NCBI GenBank assembly: GCA_965230975.1
Contig: OZ246402.1
Location: 379,819-443,818 of the forward strand
Length of the DNA stretch: 64,000 nt
Reading direction: 5' to 3'
DNA from: an uncultured Candidatus Saccharibacteria bacterium
GTDB taxonomy: Bacteria > Patescibacteriota > Dojkabacteria > J137
Shown piece after piece: positions 13,320 through 53,770 of this stretch. A program made the position numbers and the translations under genes. The notes beneath the pieces are model-generated. The model was not told where the DNA came from. It searched no databases and saw only the letters and a program-made list of their open reading frames with translations. How positions within the stretch are numbered: the stretch's first letter is position 1; each line of letters starts with the position of its first letter.

Positions 13320-13532
13320 AAAGGTTCCCAGCCTTTTGAGTGGTTAGAAAACGGTTCTTTACTTTAAGAAAATAATCTAATTTAGTAAGCTTACTAAAGC
13401 ACAAAATTAAGCAAGCTGTTAAATGCAGCTAACAAGGTTTAAATAGTAATATTTAAACAAAGTAAGGTGGTACCATGAGTTTAAACCTCATCCTTGCAGA
13501 TAATATTTTGTCTGTAGCGATGAGGTTTTTTT
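13320..13532 (+). promoter_or_regulatory. T-box leader (antiterminator/terminator) upstream of proS
   Basis: 13465-13493: AAGG-UGGUACC-AUGAG uuuaaac CUCAU-CCUU. This is the canonical antiterminator, with helix A1, a 7-nt UGGNACC bulge and helix A2. It overlaps an alternative terminator, aaccucauc...gaugagguu plus U7 (13484-13532). The bulge UGGU pairs with the ACCA of a tRNA with discriminator A (tRNA-Pro). The stem I position is not resolved. Confidence 0.5.
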
Positions 13533-13880
13533 ATGACTAGAATAACGTCTACAAATACTGAATATTTTAGGGAAAAGAATTTACAAGTTTGTTTGGAACT
13601 TCTTTCTGATAACGGAATGGACAAATCAGAAAAAACCATACTTTTAGTTGGGGCCTCTGCAAAAGAGTTAATCTCAATAAGAATTCTTGCTCTTAGAATG
13701 GGATTGTCAAAATACAAATTTGTTGGCATAAATAATAATGATGAACAGGTACAAAGATTCTTTGAATACCAAAATGATTCAATTTACGATACATGGCTTA
13801 GCCCTGAATTGCCACTAGAAGTTAATGTATACACTAAATCACAAAACAATCCCGTTGTGGGTGAAAATAGATTAAAATAA
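13533..13880 (+). CDS. Hypothetical small protein between T-box and proS
   Basis: 115 aa ORF starting immediately after the terminator U-run. It may be co-transcribed with proS or spurious. It overlaps an alternative minus-strand ORF. Confidence 0.3.
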   Translation: MTRITSTNTEYFREKNLQVCLELLSDNGMDKSEKTILLVGASAKELISIRILALRMGLSKYKFVGINNNDEQVQRFFEYQNDSIYDTWLSPELPLEVNVYTKSQNNPVVGENRLK

Positions 13881-43273: not shown

Positions 43274-43418
43274 AAAGTCTACCTATCAAATTCACTTAAC
43301 AATGGGGAGTATTTTTTATAGTCTCCTTAATTTTGAGATATTTTTTCAAACTGTAAGTTTTTTGTAAGATTACTTTACTAGAATATTAATAGTCTCTTTA
43401 CATTTTACTATTAATATT

Positions 43419-44051
43419 ATGGACTTTTTACCCAGAGAAAAGCTTTTAAAATATGGCCCTGATAAACTTTCAGATTCGGAGCTTTTGGCATTATTACTTA
43501 GAACTGGCAAAAAGGGCCAAAGTGTAACTATTTTTTCTAAGATTATTTTAAAAGATCTGTTAAAGATTGGAGTAAGTAATTTAACTTTAAAATCGTTAAT
43601 GAATATACAGGGGTTGGGTCTTGCCAAATCTTGTGAGATTTTGGCAGCTTTGGAGCTTTCAAAACGTTTATTGCAAGGCAAAAAAAACACAATTATTATG
43701 TCTCCTAAAGATGTTATGCTTGCCATGCAAGACATTGTTTTATCTAAAAAAGAGCACTTTGTTGTGTTTTATTTAGATAGTCGTAATCAAGAAATTATTA
43801 GGGATATTATATCTATAGGTTCACTAAATAATAGTTTTGCCCACCCAAGAGAGATTTTTGAGAATGCTATAAAAAACAATGCGGCGTCTATCATTATTGC
43901 GCATAATCACCCTTCTCAAGACCCAACCCCGTCAAATGCTGATATTGAAATTACTAAACGAATTTTAGAAGCAGGTAAAATTTTAGGCATAGAAATGCTA
44001 GACCATGTAATAGTTTCAAAAAATAAATGGTGGAGCTGGAAAGAGGGTTAA
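43419..44051 (+). CDS. radC: RadC-family JAB-domain protein
   Basis: 210 aa. HhH N-terminus and HNHPSQDPTPSNADIEITKR JAMM motif. Confidence 0.85.
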   Translation: MDFLPREKLLKYGPDKLSDSELLALLLRTGKKGQSVTIFSKIILKDLLKIGVSNLTLKSLMNIQGLGLAKSCEILAALELSKRLLQGKKNTIIMSPKDVMLAMQDIVLSKKEHFVVFYLDSRNQEIIRDIISIGSLNNSFAHPREIFENAIKNNAASIIIAHNHPSQDPTPSNADIEITKRILEAGKILGIEMLDHVIVSKNKWWSWKEG

Positions 44052-47000
44052 TCGTTATTCAATATGAGATTAATCAACTTTAGGCTCAACGTAGGGTTTT
44101 GATACTCTTTTATTTGTTCCAATAAGTGTGATAAGGCTGTTAATAAATCTCTTAGCATTTGTGCAAATGCACTGTCTTGTTCGAATGTAAATCCGGCAAG
44201 TATTGCTAACTCAACAAGAGCGTAATATATATCGCCTGAACTTGCAGTATTATTGATTAATGACTTATTAACTTTTGCTGATTGGCCATCCAAAATTAAT
44301 ACTAGTAACTTTTTTAGCATTTTTATCTGTTCCTCAGTTGCAACTTGGTATATTTGCGCAAATTGGTTATTAAACAGAGCAGTATAATATGCAATTACTT
44401 CATTTGCTCTTCCTCCGTTCAGTCGTTTTTGACTGCTTTTTGAAGCGTAATTTTCTATAAGTATTTGATTCTCGTTGATAAGTTGGCTAATTCTTGCATT
44501 AGCATCTCTTTTTTTTGTTTGAGTATTTAGCTCATTTTCAAGTTGAGTAATTCTTTTTTGTGATTCCACTTTAGCTTTTTCTGCATTTAGTTTGTTAATC
44601 TCTACATCCTTCTTTCTTAACTCCTCTGCTAGATTTGCTTTAGCTTCAGCATTTAGTCTTGCTTCATTGGCTTCTGATATATATTTTGCACTATCTGCAA
44701 TCAATCCAGCATTTTGATCTCTAATTTTTCTTTCTTCTTGGATTGATTCTCTTCGTTCCTGATCTACAGCATCCATCTGCTCCCTAAGACCTTCTATTTC
44801 AGCATTTAATCTAGTTACTAAGTTTCGAAGTTCTGTTATTAAATTCTCATTAGCTTGAGTGTTGGCTTGATTCATTGCATCCATGCGTTCTAATAGTTGA
44901 GTTGTGATTTGATCGTGCTGATCTATTATAGCTTGTCTATCTTGAGCGTTAGCAACTCTATTTCTTTGAGCCTCTTCAGCTTGGTGGGCTAATAAAGCAT
45001 TTATAGTATTAAAAGTACCTTCATTAATTGCACTAATAATTTCTGCTACATTTTGTTGTGGTGCTACTGGAGCAGGGTTACTAGGCAGTGGATTTGGTAT
45101 TTGTGGTCCTGCAGGTGCTGGTGGGGTAGGATCATCTGGTGTTGGTCTAATATCATTCAGATTGTCGTCTTGGGTTACAGGCCTATCAAAGTATTTTTGG
45201 ATTTCAGTTAATAATCCATCATAATTATTATATAGTTCATTAATTCTATTTTGTATATTCCTCATGCCATCTTGTGTAGGATTTTGAATAAATTCTCTAA
45301 CTTCTTTAATCAGTTCCCTAATCCTTACATCTAGGGTTTTTAGTCGAGTTTCAAATTCTCGTCGAATTTCTGGTGATAATTCTCTAATATAATCAACTTC
45401 ACCTAATAATCTTCTTAAATCGTCAATTACTGAATTTGCATTATCAATCGCATTTAACGCATCTCTTAAATTTTGCAACTCAGTATTAATTTCGGACAAG
45501 TCTCCAATGATAGCTTGTCTATTCTGGTTAGCCTCTACAACTAATCCTAAAGATATATTGTCTTTAACATTACTATTAGCCCTTTGGTTTACAATGTTTT
45601 CATTTTTAGGGCTTAGTCTGTTAATAAATTCTCTTAAAAACCTCCCAATTTTAGTATTTGGCCTGTCCCAGAAATTATTTATTAAGAAATTGATTAAACT
45701 TGCATATTGATTAGGTAGCTTTTGAATAGTAGCTTGCTCATCTGTCTGTGTAGTATTATTTAATAATTGTTGTAGCCTTATAAGTTCTCCTATAAATTTA
45801 TTTAACTCAGCCCTATTGATATTAGGGATTCTATTTGCATCAATAGGTTGTAATTGTGGCGGGATGTGAGTTTGGTTTCTAATTACTTGGAACTGTTGTA
45901 TACCATTTGGATCTAAATTCAATATATCTTGTGGTTGCACATTTTGTAGTCCTTGATCTTGGCTTACAACTGCTGGTCTAACTGGTGTTGGTACCTGATC
46001 TGCTACTGGGGCTGGTGGTACAACTGGTTGAGGTCGCACTCGGTTTGGATCAGCAACCGCTGGTTGACCTTGTCTTCGAGCAACTTGTGCCCTTTGTTGT
46101 TGATTGGCATCTGCGCCTGGATCTCGTGCAGGAAAAAATCCTAAATCTCGTTGTAATTCAGCAATCCTTCGATCAAATTCATCGATCTGATCTTGATCCG
46201 CGACAAGATCGTCGTCATCGTCGAAATTGAGGTCATCAAATTGATCATCGTTATCAAAATTAAAATCTGGTAAGTGATCAGGTTGATCAACTTGTGCTAC
46301 ATCCCTTTGATTTGGATGGGCACCTACATCTACAGCAGGATCATTTACTTGATTTTGTGCAACTTGCCTAAGCCCAGGATCTCTTATATTTGCATTGTTG
46401 TAAGCTAGTACTATATTTGCTAAAAACTGGTTTATTTCCTCAATTTCCTGCGGATTTGCTCTATTAATACCTCTTCTATTTATAACTTGTAACAATCTTC
46501 TTGCTTGGAATTGTAATATTCTCCATTCCGCTAAATTTCCAGCAAACTCCTGTGGAATAGCAAGCACAGCATATGCTAAGTCTCTTAATTGATTCACTCT
46601 TTGAGTGTTAAGTCTTTGCCCATTAGGAGTATTTAAATTTGCAGTTATTCTGCCTAAATCAGGAACCCCAGGAATAATTAAATTATAGTTATTGTTATTT
46701 CTGTTGCCAAAATTATCGTGAATAGGTTGTTGTTGGACAACAGCCTGTTGAACTACTTGAGCTTGAGGTAATACTGGATTCACTCCAGCCGGAGGATAAG
46801 CCAAAAAGTATTGTCTTAATACATCATCTATGGCAGCATTTATAGCTTGAGGGTTAGGTCTTCTGGCATTTAAAAGAACATTTAAATTAAAGAGTGCTTG
46901 TAAAATTGGTATATTTTGGTTAGCGTTATTAGGAAATATTCCTCTTAAATTGTTTACTAGGTTCCTTAAATCTGTTCTTAGCTGTCTATTTCTACGCCAT

Positions 47001-49780
47001 GTTAAAACATTTGCTGGCCATCTCAAGTTTGGATTTAGCAACATCACTCGTATTTGATATGGCAAAACAATAAACTGTTCAGGTGTTAATATGAATGGTT
47101 GTCCAAATAAATTATTTATTGCATAGTTAGGATTTTGAGGGTTTCCTGGTCGCTGAACATTTATAGGTGGATAAGCAAGTGGAGCATTAGCGCCGTTACC
47201 CAGTGCATTGTTTTGTGCATATTGTTGATTCCCTGCATTATTTCTTCTTCGTAAGGCCAAAAAACCTAATATCCCTGTAGTAATAATTCCTACTCCTGCT
47301 GCAACTTCTCTGCTAACTCCGAGCTGATTAAAAAGAAAATCACTTGGCCCTGCTCCAAAATCTACAGGTCCTATAACAATTCCAGGTCCACCGGGCGGTA
47401 ATAATCCTCCCAATGCCGGTGTTGCACCAATACTAGGTGTGCCTATAAATCTTAAAACCCCAGGGTAAGCAAATCCATGAGTAATTGGATTGTTTTGAAA
47501 TATCTCTGGTCTTGCAGCTATCGCTCTTTGTGCTGCAGCAACTGCAATACCATGATCAGGGTGATTTACATTTAACATAGCATTAATATCAATCCCTGCA
47601 AAGCCAGATGTCCTAGCATTTGAAAGTATTGCTCCAATTCTTGCAATATCCTCAGCTGTAATGTCAGCAGTTGTATTTCCATGTCCTAATATTTCATGAA
47701 TAGCTCTTTCTGCTCCTGCCGGGTCAAATCCTGCACCTGGTGCTCTAAAGTAGTTTTGAATGTCTTGAATAGCATTTACTAATTGAACTCTATCAGCAAC
47801 TGGGTTTCCCCATTCATTAGCCCAAGCATTTGCTGCATTTTCATCTATTAATTGTGTTGTGGTAGCACCTGGAAGTATTCTCTCCATAGTCCTCCCAGCA
47901 GAATTTTTGGCATCTTCCAAAACTTGATTCCCAGCATTCCCATTTGGTGTATTTGCATCACCATCTAAGACAGGTTTGCCACCTACGTTATTATTTAAAA
48001 GCTCGTTTTCTTGATTTAAATTACCACCTTTAATATTCAAATCTTTATTTCTAGCTTCGTCTATTTCATTAAAGATAGCACCTTTAACCGGAATGTTTTT
48101 TGCTCTTAACTCGTCTTCTAAAGCCTGCTTAACTTCTCCAATATTCTTTTTCCCATCTAACAGTCTATTTAATTCAGGATCATTTTCTTTTGCTAACTCA
48201 AAATGCTTAACAGCTTCTTCATGAGAGATATTGAATGTTTCTCTTAAAGATCTAATTATAGGATTGTTTATTGCATTCAAAATACCGCTCATATCTCCGT
48301 AAAATCTCATCATACCCTGACTTTGTTTAGCATATTTTTCCCTAATTGCTAGTTCCTCTCTTTCTGTTGCACCTTCTAAAGCTTCAATTTCTGCCTGTGC
48401 CATTTGATCTGCTACTTTGTTCATTACACCAGCTGTTATTACTCCTACAATTGCACCAGCGCCTGATCTGAAAATTGGATTTTCAATGTTACCTGTTCCC
48501 GCTTTAGCAATTAGAGCCATGGTAGTAACTATTCCAAGATTTTTTCGTACTTCAGGATCTATCTTATCTAACTCTTTCACTCCAAATCTTGCTAAATCAA
48601 AACCACTCCTTACAGCATCTGTAAGAATATACAGAGGACTGTTTGTGACTCGGGCTGCAACATAAAGACCAGACATAGCACCTCTTGTTCCTGCTTCTAC
48701 AACCATTCTAGAATTAACTCTATCAAAAGATAAATTCTTATCAAACTTATTAATCATTGAATAGATTTTGTGCTCGTCACTTAAATCTAGTCTTAAAATC
48801 TCAGGATCTAGTATGTATTTAATTAATCTTGTAAATTGCTCATTACCTTCTTCAGTATGATTTTTTATTAAGTTAAGATCTTTTTTTGTTAAATCTAATT
48901 TTTGCTTTAGAAAGTCAAAGGCATGATTACTACGTGGATTACCAGATCGAATAAGCATTAATTGTCTTAGTAGGAATACTCGGGGGTTTGCTTGCATTGC
49001 TTCATCTGATAAATCAATTGCAATAGGAATACCAGTCTCTTCATCTACGTACCCATCTATTACATTAATTCCCCATGTTCCTGAATGTTGACCAGGAATT
49101 ACTACGTTTTGGTTGTATTTGTAAAAGCCAGTATCTTCTAAAGAAGTCATTTTTTGCTTGATATCTTTTAGCCCAGGAATTATTTGAGTTGCTGAAACTG
49201 CCGTTCTTAAACCAAATTTCCCAAGCCTATTTAAAAGTGAGACCTCTTTTCTGTTAGTTTGAACCGGTTCTGTATTTTGTTCTGATTCCCGCTCAACACC
49301 CATAAAGTAATCTAGATCAGCTTGACTTAGTTCTGACTGGTTGCTTTTAACCAAGTACTCGGTTGGAGCCACTACTAGATTCTCCATTCGGAATTTTGAT
49401 GCAAATATTTCAAAATCTTGGGTAGGTTGACCATCTTTTGTTTGGTACTCGCATAAAACAAAAGAACCTCTATTGGTTTTAAATACTAGAATGTTTTGAG
49501 CTAGTAATAATTGAGCAACTTCTTGATTAATTTGAACATCTTTAATTACAACTGGGAATTTAAGTCCTAATAATCTAGTGACAAATGTTTGTATATTGGG
49601 ATTTGCTGGTCTTTCAAATCCATCGGGTAACGGTGGAAGAGTATCTCTAATTTGCGAGTTGTAAAGTTTAGCTACAGGTCTCTCGCCAGTCACTTGTCTA
49701 GCTCGCATATCTTCAAACGTAAACCCTTCTTTTTGGGCTTCTGCTCTTAGTTCATCTGTAGGTCTGCCAAATAACTTCAT
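44048..49780 (-). CDS. Giant protein (1910 aa): N-terminal globular region, central hydrophobic segment, Q/N/P-rich low-complexity and acidic tracts, C-terminal coiled coil
   Basis: Single uninterrupted ORF. Central GVGIITTGILGFLALRRRNN TM-like segment, poly-Asp (DDDDD) tract, PxxP-rich segments and a long heptad-like C-terminal region. No catalytic motif recognised. Confidence 0.7.
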   Translation of the reverse strand: MKLFGRPTDELRAEAQKEGFTFEDMRARQVTGERPVAKLYNSQIRDTLPPLPDGFERPANPNIQTFVTRLLGLKFPVVIKDVQINQEVAQLLLAQNILVFKTNRGSFVLCEYQTKDGQPTQDFEIFASKFRMENLVVAPTEYLVKSNQSELSQADLDYFMGVERESEQNTEPVQTNRKEVSLLNRLGKFGLRTAVSATQIIPGLKDIKQKMTSLEDTGFYKYNQNVVIPGQHSGTWGINVIDGYVDEETGIPIAIDLSDEAMQANPRVFLLRQLMLIRSGNPRSNHAFDFLKQKLDLTKKDLNLIKNHTEEGNEQFTRLIKYILDPEILRLDLSDEHKIYSMINKFDKNLSFDRVNSRMVVEAGTRGAMSGLYVAARVTNSPLYILTDAVRSGFDLARFGVKELDKIDPEVRKNLGIVTTMALIAKAGTGNIENPIFRSGAGAIVGVITAGVMNKVADQMAQAEIEALEGATEREELAIREKYAKQSQGMMRFYGDMSGILNAINNPIIRSLRETFNISHEEAVKHFELAKENDPELNRLLDGKKNIGEVKQALEDELRAKNIPVKGAIFNEIDEARNKDLNIKGGNLNQENELLNNNVGGKPVLDGDANTPNGNAGNQVLEDAKNSAGRTMERILPGATTTQLIDENAANAWANEWGNPVADRVQLVNAIQDIQNYFRAPGAGFDPAGAERAIHEILGHGNTTADITAEDIARIGAILSNARTSGFAGIDINAMLNVNHPDHGIAVAAAQRAIAARPEIFQNNPITHGFAYPGVLRFIGTPSIGATPALGGLLPPGGPGIVIGPVDFGAGPSDFLFNQLGVSREVAAGVGIITTGILGFLALRRRNNAGNQQYAQNNALGNGANAPLAYPPINVQRPGNPQNPNYAINNLFGQPFILTPEQFIVLPYQIRVMLLNPNLRWPANVLTWRRNRQLRTDLRNLVNNLRGIFPNNANQNIPILQALFNLNVLLNARRPNPQAINAAIDDVLRQYFLAYPPAGVNPVLPQAQVVQQAVVQQQPIHDNFGNRNNNNYNLIIPGVPDLGRITANLNTPNGQRLNTQRVNQLRDLAYAVLAIPQEFAGNLAEWRILQFQARRLLQVINRRGINRANPQEIEEINQFLANIVLAYNNANIRDPGLRQVAQNQVNDPAVDVGAHPNQRDVAQVDQPDHLPDFNFDNDDQFDDLNFDDDDDLVADQDQIDEFDRRIAELQRDLGFFPARDPGADANQQQRAQVARRQGQPAVADPNRVRPQPVVPPAPVADQVPTPVRPAVVSQDQGLQNVQPQDILNLDPNGIQQFQVIRNQTHIPPQLQPIDANRIPNINRAELNKFIGELIRLQQLLNNTTQTDEQATIQKLPNQYASLINFLINNFWDRPNTKIGRFLREFINRLSPKNENIVNQRANSNVKDNISLGLVVEANQNRQAIIGDLSEINTELQNLRDALNAIDNANSVIDDLRRLLGEVDYIRELSPEIRREFETRLKTLDVRIRELIKEVREFIQNPTQDGMRNIQNRINELYNNYDGLLTEIQKYFDRPVTQDDNLNDIRPTPDDPTPPAPAGPQIPNPLPSNPAPVAPQQNVAEIISAINEGTFNTINALLAHQAEEAQRNRVANAQDRQAIIDQHDQITTQLLERMDAMNQANTQANENLITELRNLVTRLNAEIEGLREQMDAVDQERRESIQEERKIRDQNAGLIADSAKYISEANEARLNAEAKANLAEELRKKDVEINKLNAEKAKVESQKRITQLENELNTQTKKRDANARISQLINENQILIENYASKSSQKRLNGGRANEVIAYYTALFNNQFAQIYQVATEEQIKMLKKLLVLILDGQSAKVNKSLINNTASSGDIYYALVELAILAGFTFEQDSAFAQMLRDLLTALSHLLEQIKEYQNPTLSLKLINLILNND

Positions 49781-50852: not shown

Positions 50853-51959
50853 ATGGAACCGCACCCAGTACCACAAAACATAATAGATGTAGAATTCAAA
50901 TTATTTGGCTCATTCAGCTTAAGACAATTTGGCCAAATATTAATAGGGTGCATGGTTGCAGTTATTGTGTACTTTATACCAATTGTTCCAATAATAATAA
51001 AAATCCCTGTAATTATAATTGCAGTTATTTCAGGGCTTTTATCTGCGGTTATTCCAAACTTTGGAACCTGGATGATTGGTTTTGCAAAAGCTTTAATAGT
51101 AGATCCTAGATACGTTTGGGTAAAAGAACCTGCCAGAAGTGATATTTTAGAACAAACCAAAACACAGCCAACAACAAAAGCTGTATCAAAAACTGATGAA
51201 ACTAAAGCAGATAAACTTGAATCTTTAATGATTGCAGATGCTATAGATGAAAAAGATGATGTGATGGAAGACTTTTTAATGAATGGTAAAGCACCTCAAA
51301 AGGATGGATTTAATAATTTATACGATAGAGTTTTTGTAGATGCAACTCCTAAGCCCATTGCCTCACAACAAGTTGATGATTCAAAATCAACTAATGAACC
51401 GGGCTTTCAAAACATTCAACAAACACAATTAGAGCAGGTTAAAGAAAAACCTTTAGATATAACAGATAATGCGAATCTGAAAGAAGTTAAGCCTTTAACA
51501 AAAGAAGATATTCTTAAGCAAATGGAACAGTTGAGATTGCAGTTAAGGCAATACAGCAAAGAATCTAATAAGGAAAAGGAGATGGAGGTTATGAGTCAAA
51601 TTAATGATTTGTATAATCAATACAAGTTAATGCAAAAAGAAGAACCAAAAGTAGTTGTAGCTGGTTCTAAAGAAGTACAAAACTTTGCAAAAAATGTTGA
51701 TCAAGGCAAAATTATATTTGGAATTGTTGTTACAAAGTCTGATAAACCTGTAGCAGACGCAGAAATTACATTAACTAATTTTGAAACCAAGGAGTCATTT
51801 ACAGGTAAAAGTAATTCTGATGGTAAATTTTCTACTGCTAAAAAGCTTCCTTTTGGAAAGTATGATGTTCAAATATTTCACCCAAACTTAACTTTTCATA
51901 CTTATAGGGTAGAAGTTGTAGATTCTTTATTACCTGCTTTTAAGTTTAGAGAGAAGTAG
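50853..51959 (+). CDS. PrgI-family (VirB3-like, type IV secretion-associated) membrane protein with C-terminal carboxypeptidase-regulatory-like domain
   Basis: 368 aa. N-terminal VPQNIIDVEFKLFGSFSLRQF plus two TM helices, as in PrgI-family proteins. C-terminal GIVVTKSDKPVADAEITL...SDGKF resembles a CarboxypepD_reg beta-sandwich. Confidence 0.5.
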   Translation: MEPHPVPQNIIDVEFKLFGSFSLRQFGQILIGCMVAVIVYFIPIVPIIIKIPVIIIAVISGLLSAVIPNFGTWMIGFAKALIVDPRYVWVKEPARSDILEQTKTQPTTKAVSKTDETKADKLESLMIADAIDEKDDVMEDFLMNGKAPQKDGFNNLYDRVFVDATPKPIASQQVDDSKSTNEPGFQNIQQTQLEQVKEKPLDITDNANLKEVKPLTKEDILKQMEQLRLQLRQYSKESNKEKEMEVMSQINDLYNQYKLMQKEEPKVVVAGSKEVQNFAKNVDQGKIIFGIVVTKSDKPVADAEITLTNFETKESFTGKSNSDGKFSTAKKLPFGKYDVQIFHPNLTFHTYRVEVVDSLLPAFKFREK

Positions 51960-52334
51960 TTAAATTATAGGTGGGTAGCTAAATTCAATGCCTTTAATCT
52001 CTTCTTCTGTAACTGTTGCGACCTCAACCCACTTTGTTAAAGAAGGTATTCTATCATCAGGGTAGCCAGTAAATTTTTCTTTAGTGCACCGAACTATAGA
52101 AGGAGTTCTATTAGCAGTCAACTGGTTATAAAATCCTATAGAATCTCCCTCAAAAGAAACTCTTGCATATGTCCACGGTATTTCATTTATTGTTTTTTCA
52201 TCATGATAACTGTTATTGTATCTATACTTTACTACACCTTTTTTATCAGCAATATCTTTTAACCTTTCGAATGCTTCTTCTTTAGAAATTATTGGGGTTT
52301 CTGGTAATTGTTCAGGAAATGGATTATTTGACAT
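51960..52334 (-). CDS. Hypothetical protein (124 aa)
   Basis: ORF between the PrgI-family gene and tRNA-Leu. Confidence 0.4.
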   Translation of the reverse strand: MSNNPFPEQLPETPIISKEEAFERLKDIADKKGVVKYRYNNSYHDEKTINEIPWTYARVSFEGDSIGFYNQLTANRTPSIVRCTKEKFTGYPDDRIPSLTKWVEVATVTEEEIKGIEFSYPPII

Positions 52335-52425
52335 TTTTATTTATTAATTATTGAATATCATACATCAAATAGTTTTTATTGCCAATTTGTTAAGGTTGAG
52401 AAACTTAATCTATATTGAAGTATAA

Positions 52426-52508
52426 TACCGGGGGAGGGACTCGAACCCTCACGCCCTTAAGGGCAACGGATTTTAAGTCCGTCGTGTCTACCATTCCACC
52501 ACCTCGGC
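52426..52508 (-). tRNA. tRNA-Leu (anticodon UAA), imperfect acceptor stem
   Basis: D-arm GUGG/AAUGGUAG, anticodon stem ACGGA/UCCGU with loop CUUAAAA, long variable arm, T-arm GAGGG-UUCGAGU-CCCUC. The acceptor GCCGAGG/CCCCGGU has a G1-U72 pair and an A-C mismatch. Confidence 0.65.
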
Positions 52509-52650
52509 ATTTAAATAACTTGCTTTGAAGAGCATTGAATTATAACCTCTGCCTTAAAATTTTTAAATAGATAATTTCTTAAATATGTTCTGACTGTTTT
52601 AAAATTTCGATTTGTGGGCTAATTTAAAAAATCCTCAAGTACAAATTTTG

Positions 52651-52712
52651 AAATTGTTAGCCAATTCTTCAAATTGTGAGCCAATTTTTTCAAATTGTAA
52701 GAAGTTTGCAAA
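52651..52712. repeat. Iteron-like direct repeats (~20 bp x 2.5)
   Basis: aaattgttagccaattcttc / aaattgtgagccaatttttt / caaattgtaagaag tandem units. Confidence 0.5.
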
Positions 52713-52760
52713 CTTTAGAAAGTATAATCCTCTATACTACAGAAACAGTGTCAAAAGAGT

Positions 52761-52810
52761 GCTAATTTGTTAGTAAAATTAGCAAGATTTAGTGCTAAGT
52801 TTAGCACTGT
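52761..52810. promoter_or_regulatory. Paired palindromes upstream of RHH-like gene (putative operator)
   Basis: gctaattt-N7-aaattagc and agtgctaa-gt-ttagcact, each with 8-bp arms. Confidence 0.4.
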
Positions 52811-52882
52811 TTATGTAGTGACTCAAAACTCTTAAGTAAAAAATTCAAGATTAAGAGGCCTTATAAACTTATCAATAAAAAA

Positions 52883-53161
52883 ATGTATAAAATAAATAGA
52901 CATACAATAAGAAGAAATATTTACCTAACACCCCAAATCTATGAACAGTCAAAAATCATAGCCAATAAACTAGGTGTTAAATACAACGAATACATAAGAT
53001 ATTTAATATCACAAGATATCTCTAGGTATGAGCTAAACGAGATTGACTTTATAACTCAAAAAGAAAAGATAGAACTAAGGCGAATAATAATTGAAATAAG
53101 AAATCATAGACATGTTGCTTCAAAAGACATCGAAAAAGTACTAAGAAGATTGATAGATTGA
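52883..53161 (+). CDS. Ribbon-helix-helix-like small DNA-binding protein (putative)
   Basis: 92 aa. RNIYLTPQIYEQSKIIANKLGVKYNEYIRYLI fits a beta-strand then two helices, as in the CopG/Arc/MobC-type fold. Confidence 0.35.
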   Translation: MYKINRHTIRRNIYLTPQIYEQSKIIANKLGVKYNEYIRYLISQDISRYELNEIDFITQKEKIELRRIIIEIRNHRHVASKDIEKVLRRLID

Positions 53162-53194
53162 AACTACTTATTACACAAGCTTTTTGCTATAATT

Positions 53195-53770
53195 ATGGGT
53201 AATTCTAACAAAAACAAAATGCTAAAAATATTGCAATATGGCAGTCCAATTTTGGAAAAGCCAACAAATAAAGTTGAAAACGTAAAAGATCCTAAAATAT
53301 TAAAACTAATAGACGAAATGCTAAAAGTTTTAGAAAAAGAAGAGGATCATTCTGCAGGCCTATCTGCACCACAAGTGGGGCAAAGTCTAAAAATCGCAAT
53401 TTGTAGAAGATTAGATTTAGAAGATGAGCTACAAGATAAAAACAAACAACAAAATATTGTAAAAAAAACAGAAGCAATTTGGGAAGTAATGATAAATCCG
53501 CAAATAACATATAAATCTAACGACAAATCTACAAAATGGGAAGGTTGCTTAAGTGTAAACCAGGGTGAATTATTTGGTGAAGTAACAAGGCCTAGAATAG
53601 TAAAGGTTAAATATACAACTATTGAAGGTAAAGAAGTTGAAATTATTGCAGATGGATACTTTTCTCATGTTGTGCAACACGAATTAGATCACTTAGACGG
53701 CGTTTTATTTTTAAAATATATAAACGACCCAACAAAACTGTACACTCCGGACGAAATAGAAGATCTATAA
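53195..53770 (+). CDS. def: Peptide deformylase (with internal insertion)
   Basis: 191 aa. GLSAPQVG, EGCLSV and HELDHLDG motifs. An extra acidic/K-rich insert lies between motifs 1 and 2. Confidence 0.85.
   Translation: MGNSNKNKMLKILQYGSPILEKPTNKVENVKDPKILKLIDEMLKVLEKEEDHSAGLSAPQVGQSLKIAICRRLDLEDELQDKNKQQNIVKKTEAIWEVMINPQITYKSNDKSTKWEGCLSVNQGELFGEVTRPRIVKVKYTTIEGKEVEIIADGYFSHVVQHELDHLDGVLFLKYINDPTKLYTPDEIEDL

Follow-up and report, generated by a model that had tools for sequence, protein, structure and literature searches.

What is an array of tandem repeats and palindromes doing in front of a small gene, next to the housekeeping genes of a very small genome? The locus lies in a window of 64,000 nucleotides (the whole stretch of DNA analyzed, with positions counted from its first letter), a segment of low-GC (~31%) chromosomal DNA of Candidatus Dojkabacteria, in the candidate phyla radiation (CPR); the best-named relatives of its peptide deformylase (Def) also belong to Candidatus Dojkabacteria (WS6, CPR). 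An intergenic gap of 373 bp separates the tRNA-Leu(UAA) gene from an open reading frame (ORF) of 92 residues, followed on the + strand by def and cca. A first-pass annotation, made from the letters alone, had likened this gap either to a replication or partition control region of a plasmid or an integrative and conjugative element (ICE), or to an autoregulated operator array. The second option is favored here: with a probability of roughly 55%, the region is the promoter-operator of an accessory, solo, antitoxin-like ribbon-helix-helix (RHH) repressor that is negatively autoregulated. Most likely, it is an ordinary regulatory cassette with no role as origin, centromere or transfer site.

Boxes, palindromes and a putative promoter

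The tandem repeats of ~20 bp reported upstream of the RHH-like gene are present in 2.8 copies. Tandem Repeats Finder delineates them at 52642-52698 with a period of 20, 83% matches and a score of 77. Just one other array in the 64 kb reaches a score of 50 (43374-43431, period 30, 1.9 copies); it is situated where the RadC gene region starts. The first two units (52651-52670 and 52671-52691) are flanked by a degenerate copy (52640-52650) and a partial one (52692-52704), and each harbors an AATTG-N5-CAATT dyad. Exact sites of this dyad number three in the window, against 0.43 expected, two of them being those within the tandem units. No other close copy of the 20-bp unit was found in the 64-kb window. 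These units form a candidate auxiliary operator or upstream element.

Further downstream come two palindromes, both perfect as had been claimed, save that the arms of the first (TGCTAATTT/AAATTAGCA) measure 9 bp instead of 8; the second (AGTGCTAA-gt-TTAGCACT) does have 8-bp arms. A close pair of this kind is not rare by itself, since perfect palindromes with 8-bp arms number 28 per 64 kb, several of them being paired intergenically. Another such pair, at 13381-13398 and 13437-13458, is located just upstream of an ORF starting at 13533, and the 100-nt windows covering it fold unusually well on the + strand (-32.3 kcal/mol). The sharing of boxes, in turn, is far above chance: three of the four copies of AGTGCTAA in the window fall within the gap (Poisson p ~1.7e-7), as do three of the seven copies of GCTAATTT (p ~2e-6), and the repeat and palindrome observation is confirmed on this ground. 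Both palindromes are enclosed in a nested inverted repeat of 85 nt, the 15-nt outer arms of which (52736-52750 and 52805-52819) carry a single mismatch. AGTGCTAA occurs in it three times and the GCTAA core five times, with one more GCTAA at 52657 in the tandem units, and the inverted repeat begins 7-8 nt after a TATAAT hexamer, the putative -10 of the RHH gene.

In the proposed mechanism, RHH dimers would bind the GCTAA-core boxes (AGTGCTAA three times and GCTAATTT three times), arranged as two perfect palindromes inside the larger inverted repeat. As these boxes start 7 nt downstream of the TATAAT, the bound protein would block transcription of its own gene. The 20-bp tandem units, which occupy the -35 position, may serve as weaker auxiliary sites or help cooperative binding or DNA bending, and would evolve by repeat slippage. 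RHH repressors such as RelB, Arc and CopG are known to control their own promoters through repeats in tandem or inverted orientation (e.g., PMC2812701). It is this behavior, together with the RHH fold of the product (see below) and the non-random boxes, that leads to the autoregulatory reading. As in RelB/relO, CopG, Arc, ParD, AtaR and KacA, the protein is small and combines an N-terminal RHH with a C-terminal helical extension and, as in autoregulated RHH operators, multiple short direct and inverted repeats populate the 5' region of the gene. In contrast to known RHH operators, the palindromes of the window come after the putative -10, within the larger 85-nt inverted repeat.

Comparison between strains bears on the same point. 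Four near-identical strains, L001 to L004 (97-100% nucleotide identity), have both gene and gap. Twelve of the 13 strain differences in the gap fall within a 93-bp stretch (~13% different) that takes in the tandem units and the sequence on either side of the TATAAT, while the left 129 bp, the hexamer itself and the whole 85-nt inverted repeat do not vary; the RHH gene, beside this divergence hot spot, is essentially invariant. The invariance of the palindromes, the TATAAT and the gene next to a hot spot supports the operator reading, as does the occurrence of palindromes just upstream of other members of the family (L013, L016 and L018). Repeats that vary among close relatives of a conserved gene had been named beforehand as evidence against a control region; such variation is found in the tandem units, but the palindromes are almost invariant.

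Several observations weigh against an autoregulated promoter-operator. No good -35 was found for the TATAAT, and the consensus promoter scan, which missed the hexamer because of this, called no promoter there. The GCTAA-core boxes do not cover the putative -10 but sit downstream of it. Between strains, no stretch varies more than the tandem units, which, with ~13% variation in strains ~99% identical, are perhaps devoid of sequence-specific constraint. A possible RNA-level role is hinted at by the inverted repeat, the + strand of which folds better via G-U pairs. In Pfam, the protein of the window remains sub-threshold for both CopG_antitoxin (E 0.037, 15.2 bits against a cut-off of 28) and the NikA-like family (E 0.04). 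Lastly, since upstream sequence exists for five family members only, no shared operator can be derived.

An RHH protein family in an accessory cassette

The 92-residue ORF is a real, conserved gene. It is undisrupted in the four strains, and it differs from the copy in L001 by 4 synonymous and 3 non-synonymous changes. Identification of its product as an RHH protein is supported by the modeled fold, without a match to a curated sequence family; PHROGs, NCBIfam, PADLOC and PDB sequence searches returned nothing significant. An AlphaFold (AF2) monomer model, built on a 16-sequence alignment, reaches a predicted local distance difference test (pLDDT) of 78 overall, 91-97 over residues 11-40 and mostly more than 90 over residues 11-45. 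It displays an extended segment (~8-16), a helix (17-30), a second helix (34-51) and two C-terminal helices. Searched with Foldseek against the PDB, this model retrieves RHH proteins as 14 of its 16 top matches and most of the top 30, including ORF56, Arc, AtaR, KacA, Rv0298, CopG, StnY, VapB, NikA, AmrZ and TacA, which bears out the RHH-like N-terminus anticipated by the first-pass annotation. Short RHH repressors are matched with probabilities of 0.9-0.99 and target-normalized template modeling (TM) scores of 0.7-0.8, and full-length antitoxins score lower; the E-values are weak because the matches span ~45 residues.

The family is small. A word-indexed search of 5.8 billion proteins gave one match, a 97%-identical copy, and an exhaustive HMMER scan of 1.84 billion representatives gave 11 proteins at E up to 0.001, the best being the 97%-identical copy (E 1.6e-48) and the next closest being 49% identical (E 9e-20). 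Profile search added five further members, yielding an RHH family of ~16 sequences that align end to end around a core motif, G-x(4)-EYIRYLI-x(2)-DI, with G31, Y37 and L41 invariant. G31, present in all 16, falls between the two modeled helices, in the position of the RHH-type glycine turn. All members are metagenomic sequences, and those of the window and of its def-linked relatives group with sequences annotated as Dojkabacteria. Searches of genome contigs with Def and with an alignment of the RHH pair detected no further cassette copy or relative, and searches with the RHH alignment detected no further relative in metagenome and viral contigs. Likewise, no relatives were found by tblastn in plasmid and phage collections.

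The cassette of ~0.55-0.6 kb (roughly 52617-53165) that holds the gene between the tRNA-Leu(UAA) and def promoters is accessory. In relatives L005 (Def 78%, CCA 89% identical) and L008 (Def 64%, CCA 76%), the gap between tRNA-Leu and def measures 135 bp and 282 bp, respectively, and contains neither the RHH gene nor the repeats. In this respect, the earlier remark that such an arrangement is unusual next to def and cca was right. In L011 (Def 72%, CCA 87%), a family member lies directly upstream of def, so that RHH versions only 33% identical occupy a common site in genomes with 87%-identical CCA enzymes. The closest homologue, in L015 (49% identical), is followed by a small membrane protein gene instead of def. 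The member in L012 precedes pyrG, and those in L016, L017 and L018 lie between unrelated genes; the neighbors of family members are ordinary chromosomal genes such as pyrG, ldh or def. A YafQ-like toxin gene, with a Pfam match below cut-off (E 1e-5), overlaps the most distant member (L013/L014), and no toxin gene stands beside the RHH gene in the window, L011, L012, L015, L016, L017 or L018. The family resembles RHH antitoxin systems by one member paired with a YafQ/RelE-type toxin, and differs from them in that the window and most relatives have no toxin gene and that Pfam RHH thresholds are unmet. From this distribution and from the divergence among relatives, the cassette is seen as accessory, fast-evolving, of antitoxin ancestry and mostly toxin-less.

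Other contents of the tRNA-Leu/def gap have been observed. In L007 (5130-5912; Def 65-67% identical), it holds two other ORFs, of 112 and 129 residues, without Pfam match, which fits a turnover of accessory genes at this site. Contigs L001, L011, L015 and L017 start 20-215 bp ahead of the RHH start codon, that of L001 inside the tandem units; such starts near the gene in four independent assemblies suggest that the upstream region is heterogeneous in the population or hard to assemble.

The elements upstream of the other members vary in sequence and position. In L013, a palindrome with 11-bp arms is found 20-45 nt before the start codon; together with the overlapping YafQ-like gene, this layout is, by analogy, the classical autoregulated toxin-antitoxin arrangement. 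In L018, TAAGAC-ttgaca-GTCTTA overlaps a canonical TTGACA-17-TATAAA promoter, and L012 displays an upstream palindrome ATGTAA-tattg-TTACAT. The element of L016 (1005-1092), upstream of a solo RHH relative (P0124, ~30-39% identical), is close to that of the window in both its nested architecture and its stability: an outer 20-nt inverted repeat encloses two inner palindromes that consist of six AGTATG half-sites, and the element folds with z-scores of -7.2 (+ strand) and -6.2 (- strand). It differs by its half-site, AGTATG and not GCTAA, by strands that fold equally well, and by its distance from the start codon, 95-182 nt against 64-148 nt in the window.

One short motif recurs in these upstream regions and was considered as a shared operator. 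TTGTAAGAA and a 21/22-nt match, CTGTAAGnTTTTTGTAAGAAT, are found upstream of the RHH relatives in L012 and L016 and resemble the third unit of the window. Direct repeats TGTAAG-N5-TGTAAG (CTGTAAGnTTTTTGTAAGAA) are present there (L012, 424-447; L016, 818-842). In a metagenome scan (L020-L039), the motif proved widespread, with ~14 distinct further contigs, none of which encodes an RHH relative; some contigs have 3-6 copies at 11-bp spacing. It is not taken as evidence of an RHH operator, its count being about that of chance or that of an unrelated response-regulator-type box. It resembles an OmpR/WalR-type response-regulator box and is not specific to the RHH family.

Competing readings of the repeats

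Could the 85-nt inverted repeat act as RNA, either as a 5' stem-loop stabilizing or attenuating the RHH mRNA or as a small RNA? This, the main rival, is unlikely, although several features point that way. The hairpin begins at the predicted +1, 7-8 nt past the TATAAT. The + strand RNA folds into a single long hairpin (-31.6 kcal/mol, z -4.8; z -4.5 when folded as DNA), and the - strand reaches a z of only -2.5; 7 G-U pairs account for this difference. When the 3195 100-nt windows are ordered by their lowest free energy on either strand, the segment takes 14th place, close to the tRNA genes and the RNase P RNA. Attenuation would come from competition between the long hairpin and a short terminator-like one, hairpin 2, and in the RNA reading the palindromes would be stems and not protein sites. 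A terminator-like signal is called at hairpin 2, which is followed by TGTTTATGT (0.1 expected by chance), and the extended hairpin and the two-hairpin form (-31.6 against -25.0 kcal/mol) are mutually exclusive. The palindromes, however, are perfect Watson-Crick dyads, as expected of sites for a dimeric protein, and they are not the stems formed in the minimum-energy RNA fold; furthermore, no U-tract follows the full hairpin. The L016 structure cuts both ways, being comparably strong on the + strand yet folding equally well on the other. All available strains carry the element unchanged, so that no covariation signal is obtainable. It matches no Rfam family: Rfam 15, run on the whole window at gathering thresholds and on 52300-53300 at E up to 10, reports only the tRNA in the latter interval, all other matches there being far below gathering score with E above 1.

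Alternatively, the repeats might be largely non-functional, the remains of an orphan-antitoxin cassette with a decaying operator, duplication scars and unbound units shuffled by slippage. This explanation, likewise improbable, would fit the tandem units, which are not only the most variable part of the gap but also look shifted by one register (unit 2 of L003 is identical to unit 1 of the window). It would also fit the patchy presence of the cassette, the loss of any toxin partner, and the contrast between the RHH proteins of the window and L011 (33% identical) and their CCA (87%) and Def (72%) neighbors. It accords poorly with a gene kept intact in four strains, with its 4 synonymous against 3 non-synonymous changes, with palindromes and a TATAAT that stay invariant in a divergence hot spot, and with boxes over-represented far beyond chance.

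A bolder proposal, which we regard as doubtful, is that the nested palindrome is the defining cis-element of an undescribed solo RHH family and that the 0.6-kb unit is a mobile or replaceable cassette of the tRNA-Leu/def gap. The element would be defined by its architecture, with an outer inverted repeat of 15-20 bp, two inner palindromes and one repeated half-site, a geometry common to the window and L016 despite unrelated sequences. It might then be a structured operator co-evolving with the DNA specificity of the protein or, no more probably, a three-way-junction RNA leader.

The reading of the region as a plasmid or ICE origin, a parC-like centromere or an origin of transfer (oriT), with the RHH protein acting in copy control, as a ParG/omega-like protein or as a relaxosome accessory, is very improbable. 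The likeness in layout, tandem 20-bp and inverted repeats beside an RHH gene, is superficial. Iteron origins (pPS10, RK2, F oriS) do share ~20-bp tandem direct repeats at helical-turn spacing with this gap. Unlike them, it has just 2.8 imperfect copies, the units of which vary between near-identical strains, a chromosomal location with conserved synteny, and no identified Rep gene, DnaA boxes or AT-rich unwinding element. With relaxosome proteins (NikA, PcfF, TraY, MobC-like), the family shares the RHH fold, adjoining inverted repeats and weak NikA-like Pfam matches, the best for any member being sub-threshold (E 3e-4, 21.2 bits against 27). A mobile element with a serine recombinase and an AAA_25 protein is found across the tRNA in one strain, and a gene for a PrgI-like membrane protein lies 1 kb away. 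Against these hints, Pfam scanning of 23 ORFs (33.4-63 kb) revealed no Rep, ParA, ParB, relaxase, integrase or coupling protein, nor, unlike in partition loci, a ParA/ParM-type NTPase gene. The skew check that had been recommended gave a profile tracking gene orientation only, with no inflection. The family has no relatives in plasmid, phage or viral collections, its other members occupy ordinary chromosomal contexts with no plasmid or ICE among those examined, and the cassette is present with or without the recombinase element. The plasmid or ICE option of the first-pass annotation is not supported. An integron attC site was also considered and rejected, as the arms misfit the R''/R' consensus (RYYYAAC/GTTRRRY) by eye and Pfam scans of the neighborhood show no integrase.

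Finally, a type III toxin-antitoxin-like locus, in which the tandem repeats would be transcribed as an RNA antitoxin ahead of a terminator hairpin and a protein toxin gene, is hardly credible: the order of repeats, hairpin and small ORF mimics ToxIN-type loci, but the ORF has an RHH fold and not that of a ToxN/AbiQ-type endoribonuclease, the units are short (20 nt) and number only 2.8, the sole -10-like box, instead of preceding the repeats, separates them from the hairpin, and neither PADLOC nor the Pfam toxin families give a match.

Surroundings of the cassette and their meaning

The features of the locus are collected in Table 1. The gap is not strictly ORF-free, as had been stated, because a TTG-initiated ORF of 53 residues (52612-52773) runs across the repeats; it is not considered a gene, being frameshifted by a 1-bp indel in L003. 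The tRNA-Leu promoter-like site falls in the portion of the gap common to L005 (homology over 52425-52616). In the putative leader of the RHH gene, the predicted stem covers the only AAGAGG, 25 nt before the ATG.

Table 1. Features of the tRNA-Leu(UAA)/def interval, in window coordinates
Feature	Position	Strand	Basis or remark
tRNA-Leu(UAA)	52425-52509	-	ARAGORN; Rfam tRNA, 57.3 bits; divergent from the RHH gene
tRNA-Leu promoter-like site, TTTAAA-17-TATAAT	52539-52567	-	Consensus scan, 10/12 matches
Outlying GCTAATTT box	52618-52625	+	Approximate left edge of the window-specific segment (alignment with L005)
Tandem 20-21-bp units, AAATTGTnAGCCAATTyTTC	52642-52704	none	Tandem Repeats Finder, repeat search, pattern counts
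Perfect 10-bp palindrome GTTTGCAAAC	52704-52713	none	Between repeats and -10; unique in the window; strain-invariant
TATAAT, putative -10 of the RHH gene	52723-52728	+	Hexamer strain-invariant though both flanks differ
Nested inverted repeat, 85 nt	52736-52819	+	Encloses both palindromes; candidate main operator
Palindrome 1	52760-52784		Perfect
Palindrome 2	52791-52808		Perfect
Leader stem CTCTTAA/TTAAGAG, 15-nt loop	52829-52857	+	Predicted from the fold of 52735-52900
Gene of the 92-residue RHH protein	52883-53161	+	Rare unannotated antitoxin-related family; no toxin partner
def extended -10, TGCTATAAT	53185-53193	+	Putative own promoter of def; right-hand limit of the cassette

On the right-hand side, the extended -10 of def is conserved as TGnTATAAT, reading TGGTATAAT in L005 and L011 and TGTTATAAT in L008. 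In the window, TGCTATAAT stops 1 nt short of the ATG at 53195, and def orthologues are 183 residues long. Because of this own, conserved extended -10, def probably starts at 53219 (183 residues) and not at 53195, and is probably not simply co-transcribed with the RHH gene.

On the left-hand side, the 3' end of tRNA-Leu(UAA) (~52421-52424) is a strain-variable junction. In L003 (9536-9544), the PrgI-like gene abuts the tRNA, and a 459-bp segment of the window (within 51962-52424) that carries an ORF of 124 residues is missing. The RepE match of this ORF (E 0.029, 13.7 bits against a cut-off of 342) is meaningless. In L004 (1-2688), the junction carries an element encoding an AAA_25 protein, a 69-residue protein and a large serine recombinase of 527 residues, the called ORF of which runs antisense through the tRNA gene. 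The PrgI-like gene itself (50853-51959) encodes a membrane protein of 368 residues, the N-terminus of which weakly matches the PrgI family and the C-terminal domain of which is CarboxypepD_reg-like. The order Zip, RadC, PrgI-like gene, tRNA-Leu, def, cca is kept in L008 and L010. Further upstream, an ORF of 1910 residues without Pfam domain (44048-49780, - strand) is only patchily alignable among strains otherwise 97-100% identical; it measures 1867 residues in L003 and is missing from L008, where RadC directly precedes the PrgI-like gene. The bacterial RNase P RNA (class A, 130.5 bits) is found at 1745-2173 on the - strand.

If the autoregulated promoter-operator is the right reading, the locus would be a routine self-regulating gene for a small DNA-binding protein, and the value of the analysis would be mainly one of annotation: a hypothetical ORF of 92 residues is assigned to a small RHH family that lacked annotation, and the start of def is moved to its likely position. 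A repeat-rich control region is typical of RHH genes. What remains new is the nested-palindrome architecture, which recurs, together with cassette turnover at the tRNA-Leu/def interval, which in these reduced CPR genomes is a site where accessory genes come and go. Beyond annotation, toxin-less antitoxin-like RHH genes persist beside housekeeping genes in very small genomes, which suggests that they have been recruited as ordinary regulators.

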